Virus record (IMG/VR): IMGVR_UViG_3300028888_000086 | Length of the DNA: 64,000 nt | Direction: 5' to 3' (one strand) | Source of the DNA: a virus | Taxonomy: Duplodnaviria > Heunggongvirae > Uroviricota > Caudoviricetes | Shown: in pieces, positions 3,026-48,850 of the stretch | Position numbering within the stretch: the first letter of the stretch is position 1 | Layout: each line of letters starts with the position of its first letter | The notes under the pieces: generated by a model | The model's database searches: none | The model's input: the letters and a program-made list of their open reading frames with translations, nothing else | Told to the model about the DNA's origin: nothing | Made by a program: the position numbers and the translations under genes

Positions 3026-4885
3026 TTATTTTTTCGATTTTCCTGCTCTAAATTTATTCTTCATTTTTTCTGTATCTTCTCTCAAACTACTACCACCAAC
3101 TCCATAACCTTCTTCATTAACAACCATAAGACCTAATCCTAATAAGTTGTTTAAGAATTTTTGGTTATCCTCTGTCGTAACTGCTTCTCTTGCTTTTTCT
3201 ATAAACGGTCTTGCATTTCTAGATAACAGAGCAGATAAATCCATCTCACTGATCTTTTGTCCTGTTACTCTATATCTACCTTGACCCATTATAGGTTCAT
3301 CTTTCTTTGGATTAATGTCATGGAAAGCATCGTTACCAAATAAGGATGAAGTTACTTTACTTGAATAAGACGGTATATGATGTAGTTCAATAAGAGTCAT
3401 CCATCCACACTGTAATTTCTTATCAACTGGGACAAATTTACCTGTCATATTTTTAACTACCTTTTCATATTCTTCAGCAGTTAAATTGGCTTTTAATTCA
3501 TCCAGGTCAGTTACAGAAGACTCAGGCATTAAAATTTGACTCTGAGATTCTACATTTAATTCAGTCATCCACTCTTCTACTTTACTAGGTGTGAATTCTG
3601 AATAACAACCTACATTAAAATAGTATACTTCTTCAATAGGTTTAGTATCATGAAGCTTTAAGAATTCATCAACACTTAATTTATCATAACGCCCTTGATA
3701 ATATTTGTTTATAAGTGGCATTATTTTATTTCTTCCTGTTTTTGTTTTCTTATATTCTTCAACCATTTCATATAATCTGTACGCTATCAAACCTAATGAT
3801 TCCTCTAATAATACACCAGCAATTTTTCTATTAATGGTACTATAAGGATTCATAACAACCTCTACCCTATATTGTTTTCCAGTATTTTTATCAACCATTA
3901 TAGGCATCAATTCATCTGGCAAAACAGTAGAAATAACACCTTTACCACCATATCTATTAGTTACTTTAGAACCTACCATAAGAGTTGTTACTTTAATTAA
4001 TCTTATTCTTACAGTATAGACAACTTTATAATCATCTCTATCCATAACAATAGGATCTAAGTTATCAGCAGCCACATACTCGGGGAACTTATCAAAAATT
4101 ATAGATCTATCCTTATTTTTGTTATATTCCTCAATTACAGGCTCAGAAGTAGTAGCAAATTTATAATCTACCTTTACTGACTTCGGAATTTTAGGTTTTT
4201 CATTTTTCTGAATTAATACGTCAGATACATAAGCCTCGTCTATATTATTTGGAACCTTATATCTCTCTTCTGTAGTATATTGTGAGAGATCCTTTTTACC
4301 TTCTTCTCCAAATAATCCACCTAATTTTTCATTAAGGGCTTTATTAATTTCATCTAATCGTCTTGCTGCAAAATATGTAACTAATGAATCTCCAGAATGT
4401 ACCTTAGTTCCAACAGGTATAATCCACTTTAAAGCAGAAGAAGTTTTTATATTTAATCTTATATCAATTAAACTATAGTGAGACATCCTTCTAGCATAAG
4501 ATTCAGATACAACTAAAGCATCTTCATTAACAAGACCAAACATAGCGTGGAATAAAACCAATGTATTTAAACCAGACTTATATGTATCTTCATTTAATCC
4601 AACAGCTCCAGTAATGATATCTCCCTTTTTAACAGTTTGACCTACTTTTACTTTAGGCTCTGTGTAAATACTAATATCATTTAAAGATTGAATTGCTGTT
4701 CTTCTATTAATATCAACAGTTTCACCATTATTGAGTTTAACTGTTACTTTATCAGAATCTATACTTACAACTTTTCCTTCATCATACTCAAATTTTTCAT
4801 TAAGTATGTTATTTTTAAGCTCTTCATCGTGTCCTGTGTCAACTAAAGGACGCTGAGCATTAACTAAAGGGATACTTTGTTTCAT
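3026..4885 (-). CDS. rpoB: RNA polymerase beta subunit, C-terminal exon (exon 2)
   Basis: MKQSIPLVNAQRPLVDTG aligns to bacterial NMQRQAVPL..EAPLVGTG. It also has NRYGGKGVIS (RHGNKGV motif), MNPYSTINRKIAG, and GQGRYRVTGQKISEMDLSAL (GGQRFGEMEVWAL). Confidence 0.9.
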   Translation of the reverse strand: MKQSIPLVNAQRPLVDTGHDEELKNNILNEKFEYDEGKVVSIDSDKVTVKLNNGETVDINRRTAIQSLNDISIYTEPKVKVGQTVKKGDIITGAVGLNEDTYKSGLNTLVLFHAMFGLVNEDALVVSESYARRMSHYSLIDIRLNIKTSSALKWIIPVGTKVHSGDSLVTYFAARRLDEINKALNEKLGGLFGEEGKKDLSQYTTEERYKVPNNIDEAYVSDVLIQKNEKPKIPKSVKVDYKFATTSEPVIEEYNKNKDRSIIFDKFPEYVAADNLDPIVMDRDDYKVVYTVRIRLIKVTTLMVGSKVTNRYGGKGVISTVLPDELMPIMVDKNTGKQYRVEVVMNPYSTINRKIAGVLLEESLGLIAYRLYEMVEEYKKTKTGRNKIMPLINKYYQGRYDKLSVDEFLKLHDTKPIEEVYYFNVGCYSEFTPSKVEEWMTELNVESQSQILMPESSVTDLDELKANLTAEEYEKVVKNMTGKFVPVDKKLQCGWMTLIELHHIPSYSSKVTSSLFGNDAFHDINPKKDEPIMGQGRYRVTGQKISEMDLSALLSRNARPFIEKAREAVTTEDNQKFLNNLLGLGLMVVNEEGYGVGGSSLREDTEKMKNKFRAGKSKK

Positions 4886-4892
4886 TAATATT

Positions 4893-5260
4893 CCACTAGG
4901 TTCGTTATTCCTAGTGCGTTCTCAGATAATAATATCTTGAACTGCTTATACTTTCATATAAGATTAGACTATATCTTCATCCTTAATTACTTAAGGAGCT
5001 TAGCACTTCCACTAGACTTCTAGTGTACTCTCTTTCGAGATAGTCGTTGGGGTTAAATCTATTATACTGAGTTGGTCAATTCTCAGTTTAATTATATTTA
5101 AATTTAACCTGCTGATTGCCCATTGTTTCATATTAACCTTGTTCATCATAAGTGACCAAACCTACTATAGTTAATCTTTAGGGGATTCCAGCATTTCACT
5201 AAGTGTACATAACATATTACTATGTTACTGCTCAATTTTACACAAAGCATAGAGCATCCC
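4893..5260 (-). mobile_element. group I intron (family 1, no ORF) in rpoB-like gene; boundaries +/-10 nt
   Basis: It separates ...RRIPFINSTDSVRISMG (aligns to SLIPFLEHDDANRALMG) from MKQSIPLV. Minus-strand R element CCCCAACGACUAUCUC at ~5036-5053 and S element GGAUGAAGAUAUAGUCUAAUC at ~4957-4978 are in the right order and spacing. The terminal G precedes exon 2. Confidence 0.7.
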
Positions 5261-6567
5261 ATTGAAATACGAACAGAGTCAGTAGAGTTAATAAATGGAA
5301 TACGTCTGGTTGTTGAAGAAAGTCGATAATCAGGGTGTAAGTCTATTAAATCTATTTCTTCTACATTAACCATTTTTCTTTTCATTCTATATTTTACCTC
5401 TACTTGTCCACTTTCATTAGGCTTTAATATTTTCTTATCATAATCAACAAATTCAGATGCACATACTTTAGAATTCAAATAATCAATATAAGGAATAGTT
5501 ATCTTATTAAATTCTTTATCATATACATCAAACATTACACCATCATCAGTAATATGTGTAGATACTGTTAATGAGTTTTGTTTATTTGTATTATTATTAA
5601 TAGGAGTATCAGCTAAGTCAATAAGATCCGTAAAAGTTGTATTAAAAGCCGTAGTTTCAGGTATTTGAATTTTACTACCTAAACTATCCAAATTTATAGC
5701 ATTGATTCCAGGAGGTACTTGTAAATTACTATCTCCTTTTGATTCACTAGTTCCTTTAAAAAATCTAAAAGCTAAAGTTGTAATAGCTGTAACTTCTTCT
5801 TGAATCTTATTATACTTAGTAAAATAACTAGTAATTCTTCTTCTTGCTGATATATAATTACTTCCATTACTAGATCTAAATAAGAAATTCATAAAACTAG
5901 TATATACACTATCTATCTTCTTATCAACTATCAAGTCCTTTAGTCTATCATCCCCGAAAGCTAAACACTCATCAATAAGCTTTGTAGTAATATATTCTGG
6001 CTTATAATCTAAATCTAACTTAATCTGAAATTTCTTTATTTGTATATCAGTAAGTTTTAGTTGTTCTTTTTTATCACCAGTTAGTTTATCAATGTCTTCA
6101 TACTTAATTTCTATAGCTCTTTCTGAAACACTAGGATTTAATTCATTCTGCCTTTTGATTTTTAATACACCTTTTTTGATATCATATTTTCTATTATAGT
6201 CAAAGTTTATATATTGATCTCCTACATCAGACATACGAATCCTACAGTCAAAATCTCCGTCTAATTTATTTGTTGCAATTCTATAAGCTCCTTCGATAAT
6301 AAAAGCTCCATCAATCTCTTTAGGTATTTCAAAAGTTGCATATTTTATCTCAGGGTTATCATTTAATCTATACGAAATTTCTATTAGGTGAGATGCTGTT
6401 AAACTATTTTCTATATAATAAGCAGCTGGTCTTGGTGGTTGTTCTTTAATAGTATAATCTAAATCTACTATACTATATTTCGTATTAAATGAATCCACCT
6501 TATTAAAAAACCTAGTTACTATAGTTTTAATACCATCTCTTTTTAATAATTCATTGAAATTACTCAT
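5146..6567 (-). CDS. rpoB: RNA polymerase beta subunit, N-terminal exon (true exon end ~5257-5261; ORF tail reads into the intron)
   Basis: IDGAFIIEGAYRIA (GxFIINGxERV), LQVPPGINAINLDSLG (ETPEGPNIGLI), RRIPFINSTDSVRISMG. Confidence 0.85.
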   Translation of the reverse strand: MSNFNELLKRDGIKTIVTRFFNKVDSFNTKYSIVDLDYTIKEQPPRPAAYYIENSLTASHLIEISYRLNDNPEIKYATFEIPKEIDGAFIIEGAYRIATNKLDGDFDCRIRMSDVGDQYINFDYNRKYDIKKGVLKIKRQNELNPSVSERAIEIKYEDIDKLTGDKKEQLKLTDIQIKKFQIKLDLDYKPEYITTKLIDECLAFGDDRLKDLIVDKKIDSVYTSFMNFLFRSSNGSNYISARRRITSYFTKYNKIQEEVTAITTLAFRFFKGTSESKGDSNLQVPPGINAINLDSLGSKIQIPETTAFNTTFTDLIDLADTPINNNTNKQNSLTVSTHITDDGVMFDVYDKEFNKITIPYIDYLNSKVCASEFVDYDKKILKPNESGQVEVKYRMKRKMVNVEEIDLIDLHPDYRLSSTTRRIPFINSTDSVRISMGCSMLCVKLSSNIVICYVHLVKCWNPLKINYSRFGHL

Positions 6568-7147: not shown

Positions 7148-9244
7148 TTAACCTAATTTGTCGTTTACTAACAAACCTAAAATAACTTCTGACATTACGT
7201 CTCCTTGTAATGAAACCTCTCCTTTTAATGCTTTACTAATTGACTTAGAAGCAAAACCATAAGAAAGAGTTGTATAGAATGAGGGCTTATTTAATACTGC
7301 TGATTGAGTTCCTTGATACTCTATTTCCTCTATTTTTGAAGTTTTAGGATTATAAACAACTCTAGTTAATCCAGCAAATAATAACTCAATAAGCTCTTCT
7401 TGCATTGAGTGTAAATCAGTAATGCCAGTTTTTTGGAATCCATCGTCAGTAACTTCATAAAATTGTTTTCTAAAAATGGTATAAACACTATTAATATCCT
7501 TAACTTTATTAAATCTAGCAGCTATATTATCCATTCTAACAACACCATTACATATTCTATCAAATTTCTTTACTTTAGCACCATCTGGGAAATAATATAT
7601 ACATTTAGGATTATATAAATACTCTTCATTATCTATATAAACATGAATATTACCATTTTTATCCTCATCATATTTTATTATTCCATCATTAATAGCATAA
7701 CAGTCTGATACTAAAACATTTTCTTTCTCAAAATATCTTTGTCCATTACTTCCTCTAGCTCTAAGAAGATTAATTAGGCAGTTTAATTTATAGATAGGAG
7801 ATGTTGTATTATAGGCATAACAAACCTCTTCTCCAGCCTTAAACGTACTTTTACCAACAGTCACTAAATTATCTGGACGTGGATATTTTAATTCTGCTCC
7901 ACGAACTTTAAGGTAAATCCACTTACCCTCTTCTCTAAATGTACAATCTTTAGGGGCTATTAAACAACTAGTTAAATCCAGCTTCCTTTCGTGGCCGCCA
8001 TGTTTTAAGCCAAGAGCTGTTTGAGTTGTACTTTCCATAAGAGAAGTACCAAATGAGAGACCTATAGCAGCACCATCAGTAAAATCAAATTTATTTTTAC
8101 CTAATAAGTCTGGAGTTACTACATTTAAATCTCCTTTATTTTTAGTAACTATAGATCTAACTAGCACTAAATCATCTTCAGAAGGTCTAGCGATCGAGGT
8201 AGTTGGAAATACTTTACCATCTACTGTTGTTCTTCCTAATGCTTTATATCTTGGGATTAATAAACCCTGATTATCTAAATCTTCACCATCTCTATATATA
8301 TAGGAATTTAAACAATAGGAAATTTGACGGTTTAACCATCCGCTCGATGGCACACCGCTAACTTTAATAGATTGTAGTGATCTGTTTTCAATACTATGGT
8401 AGATCATATCTTTTTCATTTAATCCAGTTAATAAAGATCCCCTTGTAATAACAGGTTTTTCATCTATACCAGATATAATGAATTGAGGCATGTTTAGAGC
8501 TGAAATACTAGAAATCTTAACTCTTCCTGCTCTATTTAATTCATCTTTTAAATCGTCTGAAAATTTACCCTCAACTTCTTTTTCATAATCAGCATATTTT
8601 TTAGTTAACATAGCTAATTTTTGTTTGTCAGTAAGTTCTTCAGAGTCAGCTATTCTACAAATTTCTTTATAAGTTTCTGTATCCGTGTCTGCGAATAATG
8701 TTTTGAATGAAAATGTTACAACGCCAGCTTGAGTTACGGCTCTTAATGCCAACTTTTGTAATTCACTTCTTTTTTCTACTCCCTGTTCATCTCTATTTAA
8801 GTAAGAAGATAATTTTACAGCAGCTTTAGCATCCATTCTAGTATATGGATCTTTTAATATATTTAATTTATCTATATCAGCATCCAATATCTTAGAAATC
8901 CTTATTTTACCATAGCATGTTGTTTTACTTTTATAATCTTCACTTCCTATCTTTCCAGTAAAAACAATGGGGGTCCCGTATTTTATCTTTTTTTCAACTT
9001 CAACATCCTTTAGTAAATCCTCGTAGCTTGTATAAAAATATTTTGGATTATCTAAGTCATCGGGATTTTCTAAAACAAACTCGGTTAAAACAGCCAAACC
9101 ATTTAAAGTTTCGTGATTAAATGGAAATATTGGCATGTTATTTTTCTTATAAACATTTACATATCTTGGGGACATTTTATTGTAGGTATCTTCTGCTACA
9201 CTTTCATCAACAAGTTGAATCGAAATTTGATCCCCGTCAAAATC
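7148..9244 (-). CDS. rpoC: RNA polymerase beta' subunit exon 3 (starts at DFDGDQ; the track's TTG start at 9256 is intron sequence)
   Basis: DFDGDQISIQLV is the catalytic NADFDGDQMAVH motif; long C-terminal beta' body. Confidence 0.9.
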   Translation of the reverse strand, partial: DFDGDQISIQLVDESVAEDTYNKMSPRYVNVYKKNNMPIFPFNHETLNGLAVLTEFVLENPDDLDNPKYFYTSYEDLLKDVEVEKKIKYGTPIVFTGKIGSEDYKSKTTCYGKIRISKILDADIDKLNILKDPYTRMDAKAAVKLSSYLNRDEQGVEKRSELQKLALRAVTQAGVVTFSFKTLFADTDTETYKEICRIADSEELTDKQKLAMLTKKYADYEKEVEGKFSDDLKDELNRAGRVKISSISALNMPQFIISGIDEKPVITRGSLLTGLNEKDMIYHSIENRSLQSIKVSGVPSSGWLNRQISYCLNSYIYRDGEDLDNQGLLIPRYKALGRTTVDGKVFPTTSIARPSEDDLVLVRSIVTKNKGDLNVVTPDLLGKNKFDFTDGAAIGLSFGTSLMESTTQTALGLKHGGHERKLDLTSCLIAPKDCTFREEGKWIYLKVRGAELKYPRPDNLVTVGKSTFKAGEEVCYAYNTTSPIYKLNCLINLLRARGSNGQRYFEKENVLVSDCYAINDGIIKYDEDKNGNIHVYIDNEEYLYNPKCIYYFPDGAKVKKFDRICNGVVRMDNIAARFNKVKDINSVYTIFRKQFYEVTDDGFQKTGITDLHSMQEELIELLFAGLTRVVYNPKTSKIEEIEYQGTQSAVLNKPSFYTTLSYGFASKSISKALKGEVSLQGDVMSEVILGLLVNDKLG

Positions 9245-10736
9245 CTTGATATTCAAGCAGTTACGTTACTTCTGCCTCGTTCTCTTATGAACTGCTATAT
9301 GTCTCCATATAGAATAGACTATATCTTCATTATTAAATTTCTTAATAATGTTCCGCTTTTCCACTTACGATTTTAGTGTACTCCTGTAAAAGGATAGTCG
9401 TTGAGGAACAATAAACTTATTAGTCAGATAAGTTTTTTATTTCTTTAAATAATTCATCTAGATCTTCATATACTTTATAAGGATACTTGAAATCACTGTC
9501 TGACTTAGTTTTTATAATATTTGAGTAATAGAATACTCGTAAACCATGTTCTAAACAAAGATTTCGTTTATTATCATCCATTTTAACTCTTTCTTCAAAA
9601 GTATATTTTTTATCAAAAAATTCAGTTGGTTTAAAATGTTGTAATCCTTGACACTCTATAACTGCATTAAAGTCGGGTAAGTAAAAATCTACGTGCTGTT
9701 TTCTTTTATACTTTAACCAATCCCAGGTATATTGTTTTATTATATTAATATTATTATCTTTACAATATAATTCAATATCAACTTCTAAAATAAATCTATC
9801 TCCACAACTAGGACATCCACAATTACTTAAATGTATAGATGGTTGCTGCCAAAACGGTCCATGAGAATTACATATTATCTTAACTGGTGTAGTACAATTT
9901 ACGTACTCAACTTCATCATATCCATAAGTATCTTTATGTATTAATTTTGCGCGACGTATAAATTCTTCAGTATTAATATTAACTCCACCATTACACTCTG
10001 AACACCCATGTCCATATAAATGATCATGTGGTCTTTGAGTAAATTCTTTTTTACACCTATTACAAATCAATTTAACTGGTGTATTGATATTTACATAATT
10101 TACTTCACTGTAATCATATTTATCTTCGCCATGTACTTTTTTAGCTGCTTCTATAAAACTTTCTGTTGTGTATTTTTTATATGGACTTGGATTACATTCT
10201 TTACATCCACATCCCTGTAAAATATCAACCGGCTTAATTTCAAAATACCCATGTATATCACAATTTAGTATAACAGGCGTACTACTATTAATATAATTAA
10301 CTTTATTATATCCGTATCTATCTCCATGAATCTCTCTAGCCTTTTCTATAAACTGTTCCTGTGTATATTTTACTCCACCTTTACAGTTAGGACATCCTTG
10401 TCCACAGAGATGATTGTGTGCAGTCTGAATAAATTCATTTCTGCACTTATTACAAATTATAATAACTTTATCTTTACTTGATGTATAATTTACTTTGCTA
10501 TAATCATATTTATTTTCACCATGTACTTTTTTAGATCTTTCTATAAATTCTTCTGTTGTATATTTTTTCATTATAATTTTAGTTTATATAATTTATTTAT
10601 ATTGTTCCTGCTGATTTTCTCTATTTTATGAATTTTTAGGGTAGGTGACTAAATCCTACATTAACCTCCTATCATAAACCTAGCGAGAGTTTCCAGCATT
10701 TAACGGAATTTTAAAACACCAATTTTAAAATATTTT
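9245..10736 (-). mobile_element. group I intron B of rpoC (family 1), ~1.49 kb, carrying a homing-endonuclease ORF in a peripheral loop just upstream of P7
   Basis: R UUCCUCAACGACUAUCC (~9393-9409) and S GAAGAUAUAGUCUAUUC (~9311-9330) lie downstream of the ORF stop. The intron ends ...AUCAAG before GAU UUU GAC. The 5' exon ends in U (GCU). Confidence 0.65.
9420..10571 (-). CDS. intron-encoded homing endonuclease-like protein: 4 tandem Zn-ribbon repeats plus C-terminal Vsr/PD-(D/E)xK-like nuclease domain
   Basis: The repeat YT.E.FIE...K.HG..YDYS.VNY....P..I.C..HG.F.Q.P..HL.G.GCP.C occurs 4 times. The C-terminus has HVDFYLPDFNAVIECQGLQHF (DFYLP..N.AIE..G.QH). Confidence 0.75.
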   Translation of the reverse strand: MKKYTTEEFIERSKKVHGENKYDYSKVNYTSSKDKVIIICNKCRNEFIQTAHNHLCGQGCPNCKGGVKYTQEQFIEKAREIHGDRYGYNKVNYINSSTPVILNCDIHGYFEIKPVDILQGCGCKECNPSPYKKYTTESFIEAAKKVHGEDKYDYSEVNYVNINTPVKLICNRCKKEFTQRPHDHLYGHGCSECNGGVNINTEEFIRRAKLIHKDTYGYDEVEYVNCTTPVKIICNSHGPFWQQPSIHLSNCGCPSCGDRFILEVDIELYCKDNNINIIKQYTWDWLKYKRKQHVDFYLPDFNAVIECQGLQHFKPTEFFDKKYTFEERVKMDDNKRNLCLEHGLRVFYYSNIIKTKSDSDFKYPYKVYEDLDELFKEIKNLSD

Positions 10737-10814
10737 AGCGTTTAATGGACTACATATGGAGATTGGGAATCTAAGTACATAATCACCATCTCCAGGTTCA
10801 TTTAACCTAACTTT
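10737..10814 (-). CDS. rpoC: rpoC mini-exon 2 (78 nt), encoding KVRLNEPGDGDYVLRFPISICSPLNA
   Basis: It encodes exactly the ~26 aa missing between ...RPPTLH (exon 1) and DFDGD (exon 3). It aligns to bacterial [29 protein letters not shown]. It is preceded by G (10815) and ends in U. Confidence 0.7.
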
Positions 10815-11120
10815 CATACAAAACATTGAATATTCCGAAAAATACTTATATTTTCATATAAGACTAGACTATATCATCATCTATATTTCAAGATGGACTG
10901 CGCTTCAAAAATAGGAATTTCACCTATTTCTTACTCCATATAGGATAGTCGTTACACCTTTTTTGATTTATAATTTCAAAACTTGGCTCGGGATTGCCAT
11001 ATTATATTTCTATAACTTAGGTTTCCCCGATAGCAGAGATTTTATTTTCTCCACACCTAGCATTTACTAGTTCACAGTCTTTGCATTATAAGATCGCTCT
11101 TATAAGTCACAAATTTCTTT
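10815..11120 (-). mobile_element. group I intron A of rpoC (family 1, no ORF, ~306 nt)
   Basis: R GGUGUAACGACUAUCC (~10943-10958) and S GAUGAUGAUAUAGUCUAG (~10867-10884) are present. The 5' exon ends CAU (U). The intron ends UGUAUG. Confidence 0.7.
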
Positions 11121-12281
11121 ATGAAGTGTAGGAGGCCTATTAATAATTACTAGTTGTTTTTCTGCAAATTCCTTAAATAATTTTTGAGTTTCAGGATTAA
11201 ATGCTTCTTCTCTAGTAGCTTTCATAGCCTCTTTGTATGTAAAGTTAAGCTCTTTCTGTAGATGTTCAATAAATTTTTCTCTAAGTAATTCATAAGCAAT
11301 AGATACAGGAATACCAATTTCATCAATCTTCAAATCTGTTGCTGGAACAATTGGACATCTTGCAGAGTTTTTTGTTCTTACTCCAAATAATTCACGGGCT
11401 AAATTTTCTTTGGAGGTATTTAATAATTCAGTAGCTTCTTTTTTACCTGTATTCAAAAAAGCTCTAAGTAATGCAGTATATCTAACTTTTTCGCCAGGAG
11501 TTTTAAAGCGGCCAATTACTTCTTCATAATTCAGGTCATTACTTTTTTTATCCTGTACACAACAAAGTCTAATAATAATACTGTACCAAACTGACAATTT
11601 ACTAGACCCTTGAGTTTTCTTACCATTTTTATATTCAAAGGTAACGGGTCTCATCATTGCAGGTAATACTAAATAATATCGATTTATAAGTTTTCTGAAT
11701 TCGTTTGCTCTTTCTGGGAAGTGTTTTTCTATAATAGCTAACAGACCTTCATAAGAACATTTAGATTCATCTGTTATAAATTCAGATATTTTTAGTTCTT
11801 TCTTTGTGGGACTATAAGTAAATTGGCAAGTATCAAAAACCTTTATAGTTAATTTCTTTCCACCACGACCAGCATATCCTAAGTTTTTGAAATCATTACC
11901 TTGGAAATCTAGTTTGATAGTACTTTCAGAAAATATATCATCAAATAATTCTTTAAATATATCAAATCTCAAGTCATTTAAGTAATAAAAAGGTAATTCT
12001 ATTCTTGCAAATCTTCTCATACCTTCCTCTCTTGTAAAAACTCTAGCTCCACAAAAAGGGCAAGGTTCATGAGAGGCTCTTTTAATTTTACCACAAATAC
12101 AACGATCTTCATAGATTGACCCGAAAGCATCAACATCATAAACTCCTCCAGGTATGGGTTCAGGATAGTTGAATTTCAGGTTAAAGTCTCTATGATCAAA
12201 TAAAACTCTATCTCGACCATCACTTCTTGTATAGTCTAATATAGCTTCATCTGTTAATAATTCTAGTGATACTTTTGACAT
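11121..12281 (-). CDS. rpoC: RNA polymerase beta' subunit exon 1 (through ...INRPPTLH)
   Basis: N-terminal Zn finger CICGKIKRASHEPCPFCG, RFARIELPFYY (RMGHIEL), INRPPTLHK (LNRAPTLHR). The annotated tail EICDL* is intron read-through. Confidence 0.9.
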
Positions 12282-45650: not shown

Positions 45651-45894
45651 TGTTAGCCCCTCTATATAGTGATATATAGAGAAAATCCTGAATATGCTGG
45701 AAACTCCTAAAGCTTTATCTACCAAAGTGTGAAAATGATAAAGATATTACAATGGACAATCAGCAGGGATAACTCTGTAAAAAGAGAAGCCCTCAACGAC
45801 TACCAAGGGACATCTAAAATAAAATTAGATGAAGGTATAGTCTAAACCCAAAATAAAATATCTCGAAAGGGAGGGTATCAATTGTATCACACAA
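45651..45894 (+). mobile_element. group I intron 1 of polA (family 1, no ORF; boundaries +/-30 nt)
   Basis: R CCUCAACGACUACC (~45790-45803) and S GAUGAAGGUAUAGUCUAAACCC (~45829-45850) on the plus strand. These are reverse complements of the rpoB/rpoC intron elements. Confidence 0.6.
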
Positions 45895-46529: not shown

Positions 46530-46815
46530 AAGTAAAATTGTGGCATACTGAAGTAATTTAGTATGAAAAAGATTGTGAACTCATATATGTGAGGTGTCTA
46601 AGAAAATAAAAAATCTTAGGCTAACGGTAAAAGCTAAGTTAGAAATAATATGCTAATACCGTGCCAAGTCAGAAATGAAAGGTGTAGAGACTATCCTTTA
46701 TGGAGTAGGTTTATAGTGAAATTCTATATTCCGAAGTGCAATCCATCTTGCAATATAGATGATGATATAGTCCAGCTCTAATGGAAACATTAGGAGAAAG
46801 CGGATTCTAATACTT
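46530..46815 (+). mobile_element. group I intron 2 of polA (family 1), inserted inside motif C between His and Asp
   Basis: The 5' exon ends CAU. R GGUGUAGAGACUAUCC (~46678-46693) and S GAUGAUGAUAUAGUCCAGC (~46759-46777) are nearly identical to rpoC intron A. The 3' end is approximate. Confidence 0.6.
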
Positions 46816-47227: not shown

Positions 47228-48850
47228 TTATTTGGTTTTATATGTATTAATCTCTTTTATCAGACCCTCTTTATTAGTTATTATTGGCGAAAAATAATTT
47301 GATATGCTATTATTTATAAGTACTTTCTCTTCTTTTCCAGCACCAGATAAATTGGGATCATAATAATAAAGAATTTTTATATTGTGTTGATTACATAAAT
47401 TATACTTTGTTAAATCTCTTTTATACCCTTCATTAAATGCTAGTAAACCTCCAAAATAATCTACTGGAATAAAATGTTGATCTCCATGAGCTTCTATAGC
47501 TATGTTAAAGTCTTCTAAATAAAAATCTAGTTTTAAATTTTTATTATATTTTAGCCACGTAAATGTTTTCTGAAAGTGATATTTTATTTTTAGTTCGTCT
47601 AATATCTCTCTAACTGAGTTTTCTAGCATTGAAATTATTTCATCTACATATACTAATTGTTCAGGAAGTGTTAATGATTTTCGATAAAGAGAATAGTATC
47701 TCTTTTGAAATTCCGATGGATTTTTTATATTATTTGTATTTATAAACTCTTGAAATTCTTGTACAGTATTTATATTATCAATTAATCCATTTGGTAAAAA
47801 TTTTTGTATTCTATTTGGATAGATAACTTTTGAAGTTAGTTTAAGATGTGTTAGCCTACTATAGATATCATTAAATCTTTTTCTAAAATCAGAAGGAGAT
47901 TGTATATTTTCTTTATTTATCAATTCTTGGAAGTCTGTTTCAGAATTGTACTTTTTTAATTCTGAATTAGATTTTGGTCTTAAAGGAAACTCTAATTTTG
48001 AATCCCACTTATTTCTTAGTATTTTAGCATACATAGACATATTAGACCTTCTTATTTCATCTAAATATACTATTTTATTTACTATTATATAATTTTGTAT
48101 ATAATCAAAAGTATATAAATCTAATTCCGAGTTTTGTAATTTTAATTCTGTATATCCAACATCTTCAGATTTTATGCCAAGCTTCCTCATACGTTTATCA
48201 ACTTTAGGGAACCTATTTAACATATCAGCTACATTCTTAATATTATTCTCTTCTATGAATTTCTTGAAGTCTTCAATTGTATTTAATTTCGAAGTATCTA
48301 ACCATCCAGGAAATGTTAATAGTCTATTTCCCTTCTTAAGATATCCAAAGTCCAGTGCCCATTTATACTCAGTTTTATAATTTTCTCGAAAGTCCTTTGG
48401 GCTAGATATATTATTATCGTTAATAAACTTCTGAAATTCTTCTATAGATCTTAATTTATTTTCCCTTTCGTATTTTAATGGATTTTTATATTTTATCTCT
48501 TTAGCTAGATGTTTTCCAACTAATTTTTTATATGTTGAGGGAAATCTGGAATTAAAGTCTGAATAATTCTCTATATTGTTCTCGTCAACAAATTTTTGAA
48601 AGTCTTCTAAATTATTCAGATTTTTATTCGTTTTAAAATCTCTAGTCTTTTCAGTATACACTACATCATCATTGAACTTCAGATATTTAAGTCTACTATG
48701 AACCTTAAGATATCTTTTCTTTAAATCAGAGTTACTTTTTATATTGTTATTCGCAATAAATCTCTGAAAATGATCTAATTCTGTGAAATCTTTTGCATTT
48801 ATTTCATCATTAGATACTCCAATTTTGTCAAAACTTTTTATATTATTCAT
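47228..48850 (-). CDS. homing-endonuclease-like protein: 6 N-terminal ~40-aa repeats plus C-terminal Vsr/PD-(D/E)xK-like nuclease (paralog of the rpoC intron ORF nuclease domain)
   Basis: Repeat (L/I)E(D/E)FQKFI.ENNI....DF..R(F/Y) occurs 6 times. The C-terminus has LKLDFYLEDFNIAIEAHGDQHF. Confidence 0.7.
   Translation of the reverse strand: MNNIKSFDKIGVSNDEINAKDFTELDHFQRFIANNNIKSNSDLKKRYLKVHSRLKYLKFNDDVVYTEKTRDFKTNKNLNNLEDFQKFVDENNIENYSDFNSRFPSTYKKLVGKHLAKEIKYKNPLKYERENKLRSIEEFQKFINDNNISSPKDFRENYKTEYKWALDFGYLKKGNRLLTFPGWLDTSKLNTIEDFKKFIEENNIKNVADMLNRFPKVDKRMRKLGIKSEDVGYTELKLQNSELDLYTFDYIQNYIIVNKIVYLDEIRRSNMSMYAKILRNKWDSKLEFPLRPKSNSELKKYNSETDFQELINKENIQSPSDFRKRFNDIYSRLTHLKLTSKVIYPNRIQKFLPNGLIDNINTVQEFQEFINTNNIKNPSEFQKRYYSLYRKSLTLPEQLVYVDEIISMLENSVREILDELKIKYHFQKTFTWLKYNKNLKLDFYLEDFNIAIEAHGDQHFIPVDYFGGLLAFNEGYKRDLTKYNLCNQHNIKILYYYDPNLSGAGKEEKVLINNSISNYFSPIITNKEGLIKEINTYKTK

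Follow-up and report, generated by a model that had tools for sequence, protein, structure and literature searches.

A beta-prime RNA polymerase gene divided by two group I introns around a mini-exon in an uncultured jumbo phage

Gene layout and exon boundaries

The stretch analysed here (the window) comprises 64,000 nucleotides (nt) of IMG/VR record IMGVR_UViG_3300028888_000086, from an uncultured, AT-rich jumbo phage (G+C content of the window 27.5%). A gene for the RNA polymerase subunit beta-prime (rpoC-like) is located on its minus strand at 12281..7148 and is interrupted twice. The first open reading frame (ORF; 12281..11100) runs to ...VIINRPPTLH and then through six out-of-register codons of unrelated sequence to a stop, and the motif DFDGDQ begins at 9244 inside a second ORF (9256..7148). 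Between both lie a 383-amino-acid (aa) ORF (10571..9420) and non-coding DNA. Exon 1 matched Pfam RNA_pol_Rpb1_2 (E 9e-9). The predicted protein was 22-31% identical to known phage and bacterial beta-prime proteins (tblastn, 31% or less), and a megablast search of 50,697 phage records returned no near DNA match of the window or the gene.

Exon boundaries were set by alignment to intact homologues. From a large protein collection, 35 full-length uninterrupted homologues were obtained (P0001-P0035; 1113-1131 aa, 63-72% identical, 100% query coverage), and more distant intact homologues were also retrieved. Across both junctions the intact homologues read LH-EY(S/N)M(F/Y)(A/C)(C/M)K..PL(N/G)A-DFDGD. 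Joining the three exons of Table 1 gives a frame that is open for 1118 aa and collinear with the homologues from end to end, with no residue missing or extra. The product reads ...NRPPTLH-EYSMFCM...PLNA-DFDGDQ..., the mini-exon segment directly preceding the catalytic NADFDGD loop. Predicted junction 1 is CAU|GAAUAU, that is ...ACACUUCAU|GAAUAUUCA..., and predicted junction 2 is ...UUAAACGCU|GAUUUUGAC...; spliced reads would be expected to contain ...CCUACACUUCAU|GAAUAUUCAAUG... and ...CCAUUAAACGCU|GAUUUUGACGGG..., respectively. At these positions, fixed independently by protein collinearity, the last nucleotide of both introns is G (omega-G) and the last base of both 5' exons is U.

The original prediction, made from the window sequence, had pointed to a first ORF ending in ...INRPPTLH and a second one with DFDGDQ from 9244, both of which were seen in the ORFs. 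It had also stated that linking residues are missing from both ORFs; this was correct, the number being 33 rather than about 26 by alignment to the intact homologues. Its mini-exon (10814-10737, 78 nt, first junction CAU|AAAGUU) had to be revised. Seven codons for EYSMFCM (gaa tat tca atg ttt tgt atg) lie in frame directly upstream of KVRL, and EYSMFCM or near variants stand between TLH and KVRL in all intact homologues aligned. Because intact homologues carry this segment, the mini-exon was taken as 99 nt and the end of intron 1 as 10836; the originally proposed 3' splice site of intron 1 lies 21 nt further downstream. A G also precedes 10814, and the terminal-G rule alone cannot separate the two versions. 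The 78-nt version, however, deletes a segment present in every intact homologue, and the same seven codons are kept in frame right after intron 1 in the related contigs L002 and L105, so that we find it scarcely credible. The earlier remark that 5' exons end in U and introns in G holds with the corrected boundary as well.

Table 1. Coordinates of exons, introns and intron elements of the beta-prime gene in the window
Feature	Positions	Strand	Description	Basis
Exon 1	11121..12281	-	387 codons, ends ...NRPPTLH, last base U	ORF list, tblastn, alignment to intact homologues P0001-P0035
Intron 1	10836..11120	-	285 nt, no ORF, assigned to group I, IA-like (P7.1 + P7.2), ends in G (...UUUUUCG)	
Intron 1 internal guide	11107..11113	-	UUUGUGA; predicted to pair with UCAU|AAA (P1), U.G at splice site, GAAA loop	Read from sequence
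Intron 1 R element (P7 5' strand)	10943..10955	-	GUAACGACUAUCC; P7 intact in 7/7 sequences	
Intron 1 S element (P7 3' strand)	10865..10878	-	GAUGAUAUAGUCUA	
Mini-exon	10737..10835	-	99 nt, 33 aa, EYSMFCMKVRLNEPGDGDYVLRFPISICSPLNA, last base U	Intact-homologue alignment
Intron 2	9245..10736	-	1492 nt, assigned to group I, ORF in P6 loop, ends in G (...AUAUCAAG)	
Intron 2 internal guide	10714..10726	-	AAAAUU-GGUGUUU; P10 with 3' exon GAUUUU, P1 with 5' exon AAACGCU	
Intron 2 P6 5' strand	10600..10608	-	GGAACAAUA	
Intron 2 ORF	9420..10571	-	383 aa, four treble-clef zinc-finger repeats and putative C-terminal Vsr-like PD-(D/E)xK domain	
Intron 2 P6 3' strand	9405..9413	-	UAUUGUUCC	
Intron 2 R element	9392..9404	-	UCAACGACUAUCC	
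Intron 2 S element	9315..9328	-	GAAGAUAUAGUCUA	
Exon 3	7148..9244	-	698 codons and stop, starts DFDGDQ	

Group I cores of both inserts

Covariance model RF00028 was matched by intron 1 over the full model when a short slice was searched (69.4 bits, E 7.5e-18; gathering score 50). The 3' half of intron 2, searched alone, gave a 5'-truncated match to model positions 113-253 (38.9 bits, E 6e-9), and an ORF-less orthologue of intron 2 in the related contig L056 scored 78.5 bits. R and S core elements, originally predicted for both gaps, were found in each of them (Table 1), with GACUAU...AUAGUC within the R and S elements of both. The motif GATATAGTC occurs five times on the two strands of the window, and four of these occurrences lie inside introns confirmed by Rfam.

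Secondary structures were built by hand and tested on homologues, with 3' partners slid by 1-3 columns as a control. Across seven members of the intron 1 lineage, 90.4% of cells were paired, versus 36-44% in the slid controls, and compensatory changes were found in 37 of 81 pairs. RNAalifold recovered P2, P3, P4, P5, P6, P7.1, P7.2 and P8 unaided. In P1, the exon of L002 has G for U and its guide has C for A, and exon position -4 changes jointly with its guide partner in L002 and L105. P3 and P7 are invariant within the seven-sequence set; compensatory variants were found outside it, namely P3 GAUUGUG/UGCAAUC in an intron of the same lineage in the window's DNA polymerase gene, and P3 GUCAGUG/CGCUGAC and P7 GACCAU/AUGGUC in a relative from Bacillus phage phi3T. 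Two covarying hairpins between the P3 5' strand and P4 (11025-11072, minus strand) are present in all intron 1 relatives.

Two other pairings were tried for intron 1 and rejected. A P4 of GCUAGG/CCGAGC is broken by L002, and all sequences are compatible with CGGGG/CCCG flanked by a U-A to A-U swap. The Rfam alignment assigned to P3 the 3' strand of the second extra hairpin, which covaries within itself; GACUGUG/CGCAGUC shows covariation in two relatives.

For intron 2, seven orthologues were aligned after their loop inserts had been cut out. The structure comprises P1, P3, P4, P5-P5c, P6, P7 (pseudoknot), P7.1, P7.2, P8, P9, P9.1, P9.2 and P10. Of the cells, 92.3% were paired (slid controls, 38-46%), and compensatory double changes were seen in 40 of 90 pairs (slid controls, 5-12). 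Guide pairing amounted to 95.9% for P1 and 88.1% for P10, the U.G at the 5' splice site being found in 7/7 sequences.

By covariance model and covariation, both inserts were classified as group I introns. P7.1 and P7.2 are present and covarying in both, between P7 and P3', and on this feature the two were assigned to subgroup IA (intron 1 as IA-like). Placement in IA2 is our assumption, from a resemblance to T4 td. Two other types of element were considered and rejected. No Rfam scan of the region listed a group II family, and the ORF encodes a putative zinc-finger nuclease, not a reverse transcriptase. As to an intein, the frame of exon 1 runs only seven codons into intron 1 before it closes, stop codons occur within the inserts in the exon frame, and the ORF begins and ends with codons of its own.

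Putative endonuclease gene and distribution in relatives

The 383-aa ORF sits between the two P6 strands of intron 2, without fusion to the exons. It matched Pfam DUF4379 in its zinc-finger repeats (E 1.8e-9), relatives matching DUF723, and PHROG families 559, 681 and 9084, described as endonuclease or homing endonuclease (E 2e-91 to 2e-17). For the C-terminal domain (about 125 aa), an AlphaFold2 (AF2) model with a mean predicted local distance difference test score (pLDDT) of 74 was best matched by Vsr (1vsr/1cw0), followed by other PD-(D/E)xK nucleases; sequence searches of PDB with this domain returned nothing useful. One homologue of the endonuclease is named very-short-patch-repair endonuclease by JGI. 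With moderate confidence, the model points to a Vsr-like nuclease fold. Enzymes of the same family were found in the same P6 loop with one zinc-finger repeat in L002, three in L001 and L105, and four in the window. The orthologous intron of L080 carries a GIY-YIG enzyme instead, and those of L054-L068 carry no ORF.

A free-standing 540-aa ORF beside the window's DNA polymerase gene (47228-48850, minus strand) has the C-terminal Vsr-like motif LDFYLEDFNIAIEAHGDQHF...NLC...YY seen in the intron 2 endonuclease. To judge from this motif, it may be a free-standing homing endonuclease paralogue.

Relatives of the gene were collected from 73 IMG/VR contigs (many of 230-400 kb) and several metagenome contigs. 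The two-intron architecture of the window is exactly repeated in two other phage genomes (L002/L003 and L105), the three genomes being 71-75% identical at the protein level; a near-identical fourth contig ends before intron 1. The mini-exons of L002 and L105 differ from that of the window mostly by synonymous changes. The exon flanking the site in L001 is 97% identical to the window.

Occupancy was scored per site (Table 1 exon ends correspond to residues 387 and 420). Almost all IMG/VR relatives are occupied after residue 380. Occupancy after 387 (intron 1) is restricted to the window, L002/L003 and L105. Site 420/421 (intron 2) is occupied in the window, L001, L002/3, L054-68, L072, L077/78, L080 and L105 (about twenty others beyond the site-387 set) and is empty in P0001-P0035, L004-L010 and many others. 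Other relatives have introns at both 380/381 and 420/421, at one site only, or at none; several of them, and all 35 intact proteins, are without any intron in the catalytic segment. Exon mapping showed that breaks in beta-prime recur at many positions, a single gene having as many as seven or eight.

In many relatives among the 230-400 kb IMG/VR contigs L011-L079 the gene falls into up to 8-9 tblastn blocks, a much higher degree of fragmentation than the window shows. Breaks recur near residues 380, 420, 603, 637, 674, 718, 815/836 and 904/918. L072 (IMG/VR 3300012979_000028) has a 12-nt micro-exon at 9445-9456, GATTTTGATGGT (DFDG), between two group I introns scoring 56.7 and 43.5 bits with RF00028. 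This micro-exon contains nothing beyond the P10 and P1 recognition sequences of the neighbouring introns.

Nearest relatives of intron 1 in other genes were found in family-A DNA polymerase (metagenomes and the window) and in yonO (phi3T). About 100 nt of its core are 76-82% identical to Bacillus phage sequences, and shorter stretches match Staphylococcus and Streptococcus phages. Searching IMG/VR with an exact pattern of the P3-hairpin motif of intron 1 gave 0 matches; a metagenome scan retrieved 25 stretches, only five of which are introns. Because its nearest relatives sit in other genes, introns 1 and 2 were assigned to different lineages with separate histories. Their sites are filled independently in the relatives, as separate insertions would predict.

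These results agree with most of what had been proposed for the locus. Three exons separated by two group I introns are borne out by covariance model and covariation, and the position of the mini-exon segment just before the catalytic loop by homologue alignment. That the second intron carries an endonuclease gene is supported by the ORF in its P6 loop and the PHROG endonuclease matches. The idea of two independent insertions fits the different lineages and the independent occupancy of their sites.

A truly split beta-prime, phiKZ-like, was weighed against these data. The 393-aa and 702-aa ORFs would then be translated separately and assemble, the rest being spacer and a free-standing endonuclease gene. 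Jumbo-phage RNA polymerase subunits are often encoded by separate N- and C-terminal genes (PMC7598289), and the C-terminal ORF has an in-frame TTG at 9256. Between the two ORFs, however, stand 33 in-frame codons that neither contains, conserved under purifying selection in three genomes. Each spacer is a ribozyme supported by covariation, its ends falling exactly on the exon ends, and close relatives encode one continuous protein. We therefore regard separate translation as very improbable.

Other introns were noted in the window. The neighbouring beta-subunit gene is split as well, ORF 6567..5146 ending in ...RISMGCSML followed by junk and ORF 4885..3026 starting with (M)KQSIPLV. Its insert (4883-5244, minus strand) is a 362-nt group I intron without ORF (RF00028, 74.7 bits). 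In the near-identical L001, beta is intact (1059 aa) and reads SMLRQSIPLV. On the plus strand, a 273-nt group I intron at 46530-46802 (RF00028, 52.7 bits) splits the family-A DNA polymerase gene at FITVH|DSNT (motif C) and belongs to the lineage of beta-prime intron 1. A second compact group I intron is probably present in the same gene at about 45654-45877 (plus strand, KRWSSG|YHTIISKSD), with candidate P, Q, R and S motifs AUGCUGGAAAC, CAAUCAGCAGG, CAACGACUACC and GAAGGUAUAGUCUA identified by eye only. L094 and L099 were initially candidates for RNA polymerase genes with 16-19-nt micro-exons; by comparison with the polymerase gene of the window they are family-A DNA polymerase genes. They apparently hold two introns about 16-19 nt of exon apart (GGTxS...; L094 5515-5808, L099 4794-5077; upstream boundaries approximate).

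Predicted splicing and homing, and comparison with known systems

We consider it very probable that the locus yields one pre-mRNA with two group I ribozymes, spliced to a continuous 1118-aa beta-prime, and a homing endonuclease encoded in intron 2. In this mechanism, beta-prime would be transcribed as a single pre-mRNA in which each internal guide forms P1 with the last bases of the upstream exon, placing a U.G wobble where cleavage occurs. Free guanosine would attack the 5' splice site, and the freed exon would attack after the last G of the intron, so that exon 1 is ligated to the 99-nt mini-exon and this in turn to exon 3. On the model of other phage intron endonucleases, the zinc-finger and Vsr-like nuclease would cut or nick intron-less alleles in co-infecting relatives, and repair would copy intron 2 into the cut allele (homing). 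The ORF-less intron 1, 99 bp away, would probably be co-converted with intron 2, or may have arrived separately and lost its ORF.

Several points weigh against this interpretation. RF00028, proposed originally as a check, was unmatched in the whole window at the gathering threshold and in a 2.4-kb slice (9000-11400) at E<=10; matches were obtained only in slices below about 700 nt, those of 190-650 nt giving 39-79 bits. Intron 2 with its 1.15-kb loop insert was not scorable whole by the covariance model, and the Rfam consensus has only a short joining segment at the P3-P4 interval, leaving the two hairpins of intron 1 unmodelled. The nuclease-fold match comes from a medium-confidence model with template modelling (TM) scores of only 0.36-0.48, and a Pfam search with the C-terminal domain returned nothing useful. 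Finally, splicing itself, like endonuclease specificity and the homing route, is inferred from sequence and analogy. Since the same introns score 52-75 bits in slices under 700 nt, the misses in the whole window and the 2.4-kb slice, which affected every group I intron, were attributed to a speed-filter artefact in AT-rich DNA.

It was also considered that the introns are real and that one or both self-splice poorly, being protein-dependent or a defective allele in the metagenomic assembly, or that the mini-exon is sometimes skipped. In vivo, AT-rich group I introns often depend on helper proteins, and splicing of the three-intron gene of phage Twort reportedly skips an exon at times. Against this, no core helix of either window intron is disrupted, the exons are without frameshift or stop, and the architecture is kept in the three diverged genomes described above. 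We judge poor splicing or skipping very unlikely.

On a wider scale, about 45 codons at the beta-prime catalytic loop could form a multi-site homing hotspot in this gut jumbo-phage family, with co-conversion and a possible weapon role. As a whole this proposal is tentative, with slightly more to be said against it than for it. It would comprise at least three sites (after 380, 387 and 420), together with one within DFDG|D in L072, occupied by intron lineages unrelated to each other. Lineages would also move between RNA polymerase and DNA polymerase genes, leaving exons down to 12 nt, and ORF-less intron 1 would persist through co-conversion by the intron 2 endonuclease. The intron pair might serve as a weapon against co-infecting relatives, as in PhiPA3 (see below).

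Without the two splices the phage would seem to lack an intact beta-prime catalytic centre. Gene callers yield two truncated proteins and an orphan endonuclease at this locus, and correct annotation needs recognition of the introns; standard whole-contig Rfam scans can overlook group I introns in very AT-rich phage DNA. The locus offers a defined target for studying intron homing, co-conversion and interference competition at a phage RNA polymerase active site.

Among cultured phages, the closest relative of intron 1 is the intron in yonO of phi3T and SPbeta-like phages, with 82% identity over the P7-P8 core, the two P3-P4 hairpins in common, and compensatory P3 and P7. It lies about 80 residues downstream of DxDGD in a polymerase of unrelated length; its site is therefore not homologous to that of intron 1. 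In the phi3T record (KY030782.1, L107; about 51.5-51.9 kb) this intron is unannotated and splits yonO, an SPbeta-type single-subunit RNA polymerase gene, into the 'hypothetical' coding sequences phi3T_60 and phi3T_59.

The gene orf142 of Twort holds three IA-type group I introns with short exons between them, and T4 td carries its endonuclease ORF in the P6 loop. The window resembles them in having several IA-type introns with short exons and an ORF looped from a peripheral helix; genes and hosts are different.

RNA polymerase subunit genes of AR9 (Bacillus) and MarsHill-like Staphylococcus jumbo phages are described as frequently intron-disrupted (10.1101/2020.12.14.422802, with reference to the AR9 genome paper); these are different phage lineages, with protein identity to the window beta-prime below 30%. 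Jug gut jumbo phages have genomes of 360-402 kb with about 18 group I introns each, splitting terL, nrdD and DNA polymerase, and metatranscriptome support for splicing of 37/76 introns (Sci Adv 2026, PMC12880540). The IMG/VR relatives (230-400 kb contigs) appear similar to them in size range and intron load. The split genes named in the passages cited are those three, not rpoC, and the window, with no near DNA match in the phage collection, is at most a candidate member of this clade.

A close parallel is the gp210 intron of PhiPA3, a putative member of group I that carries an HNH endonuclease and lies at the catalytic aspartates of the gene for the beta subunit of the virion RNA polymerase (Birkholz et al., Science 2024, PMC11620839). 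This endonuclease acts against co-infecting PhiKZ by targeting the intron-less homologue (PMC11620839). As in PhiPA3, a group I intron with an endonuclease ORF interrupts a jumbo-phage gene for a multisubunit RNA polymerase at catalytic residues. Unlike PhiPA3, with its single intron in beta and its HNH enzyme, the window has two introns, in beta-prime, and a zinc-finger and Vsr-like enzyme, all known here from sequence. Group I introns that are mobile and sit in essential genes of jumbo phages, those for RNA polymerase subunits among them, are already established; specific to the present locus are the two introns bracketing the segment before NADFDGD and the zinc-finger and Vsr-like enzyme.

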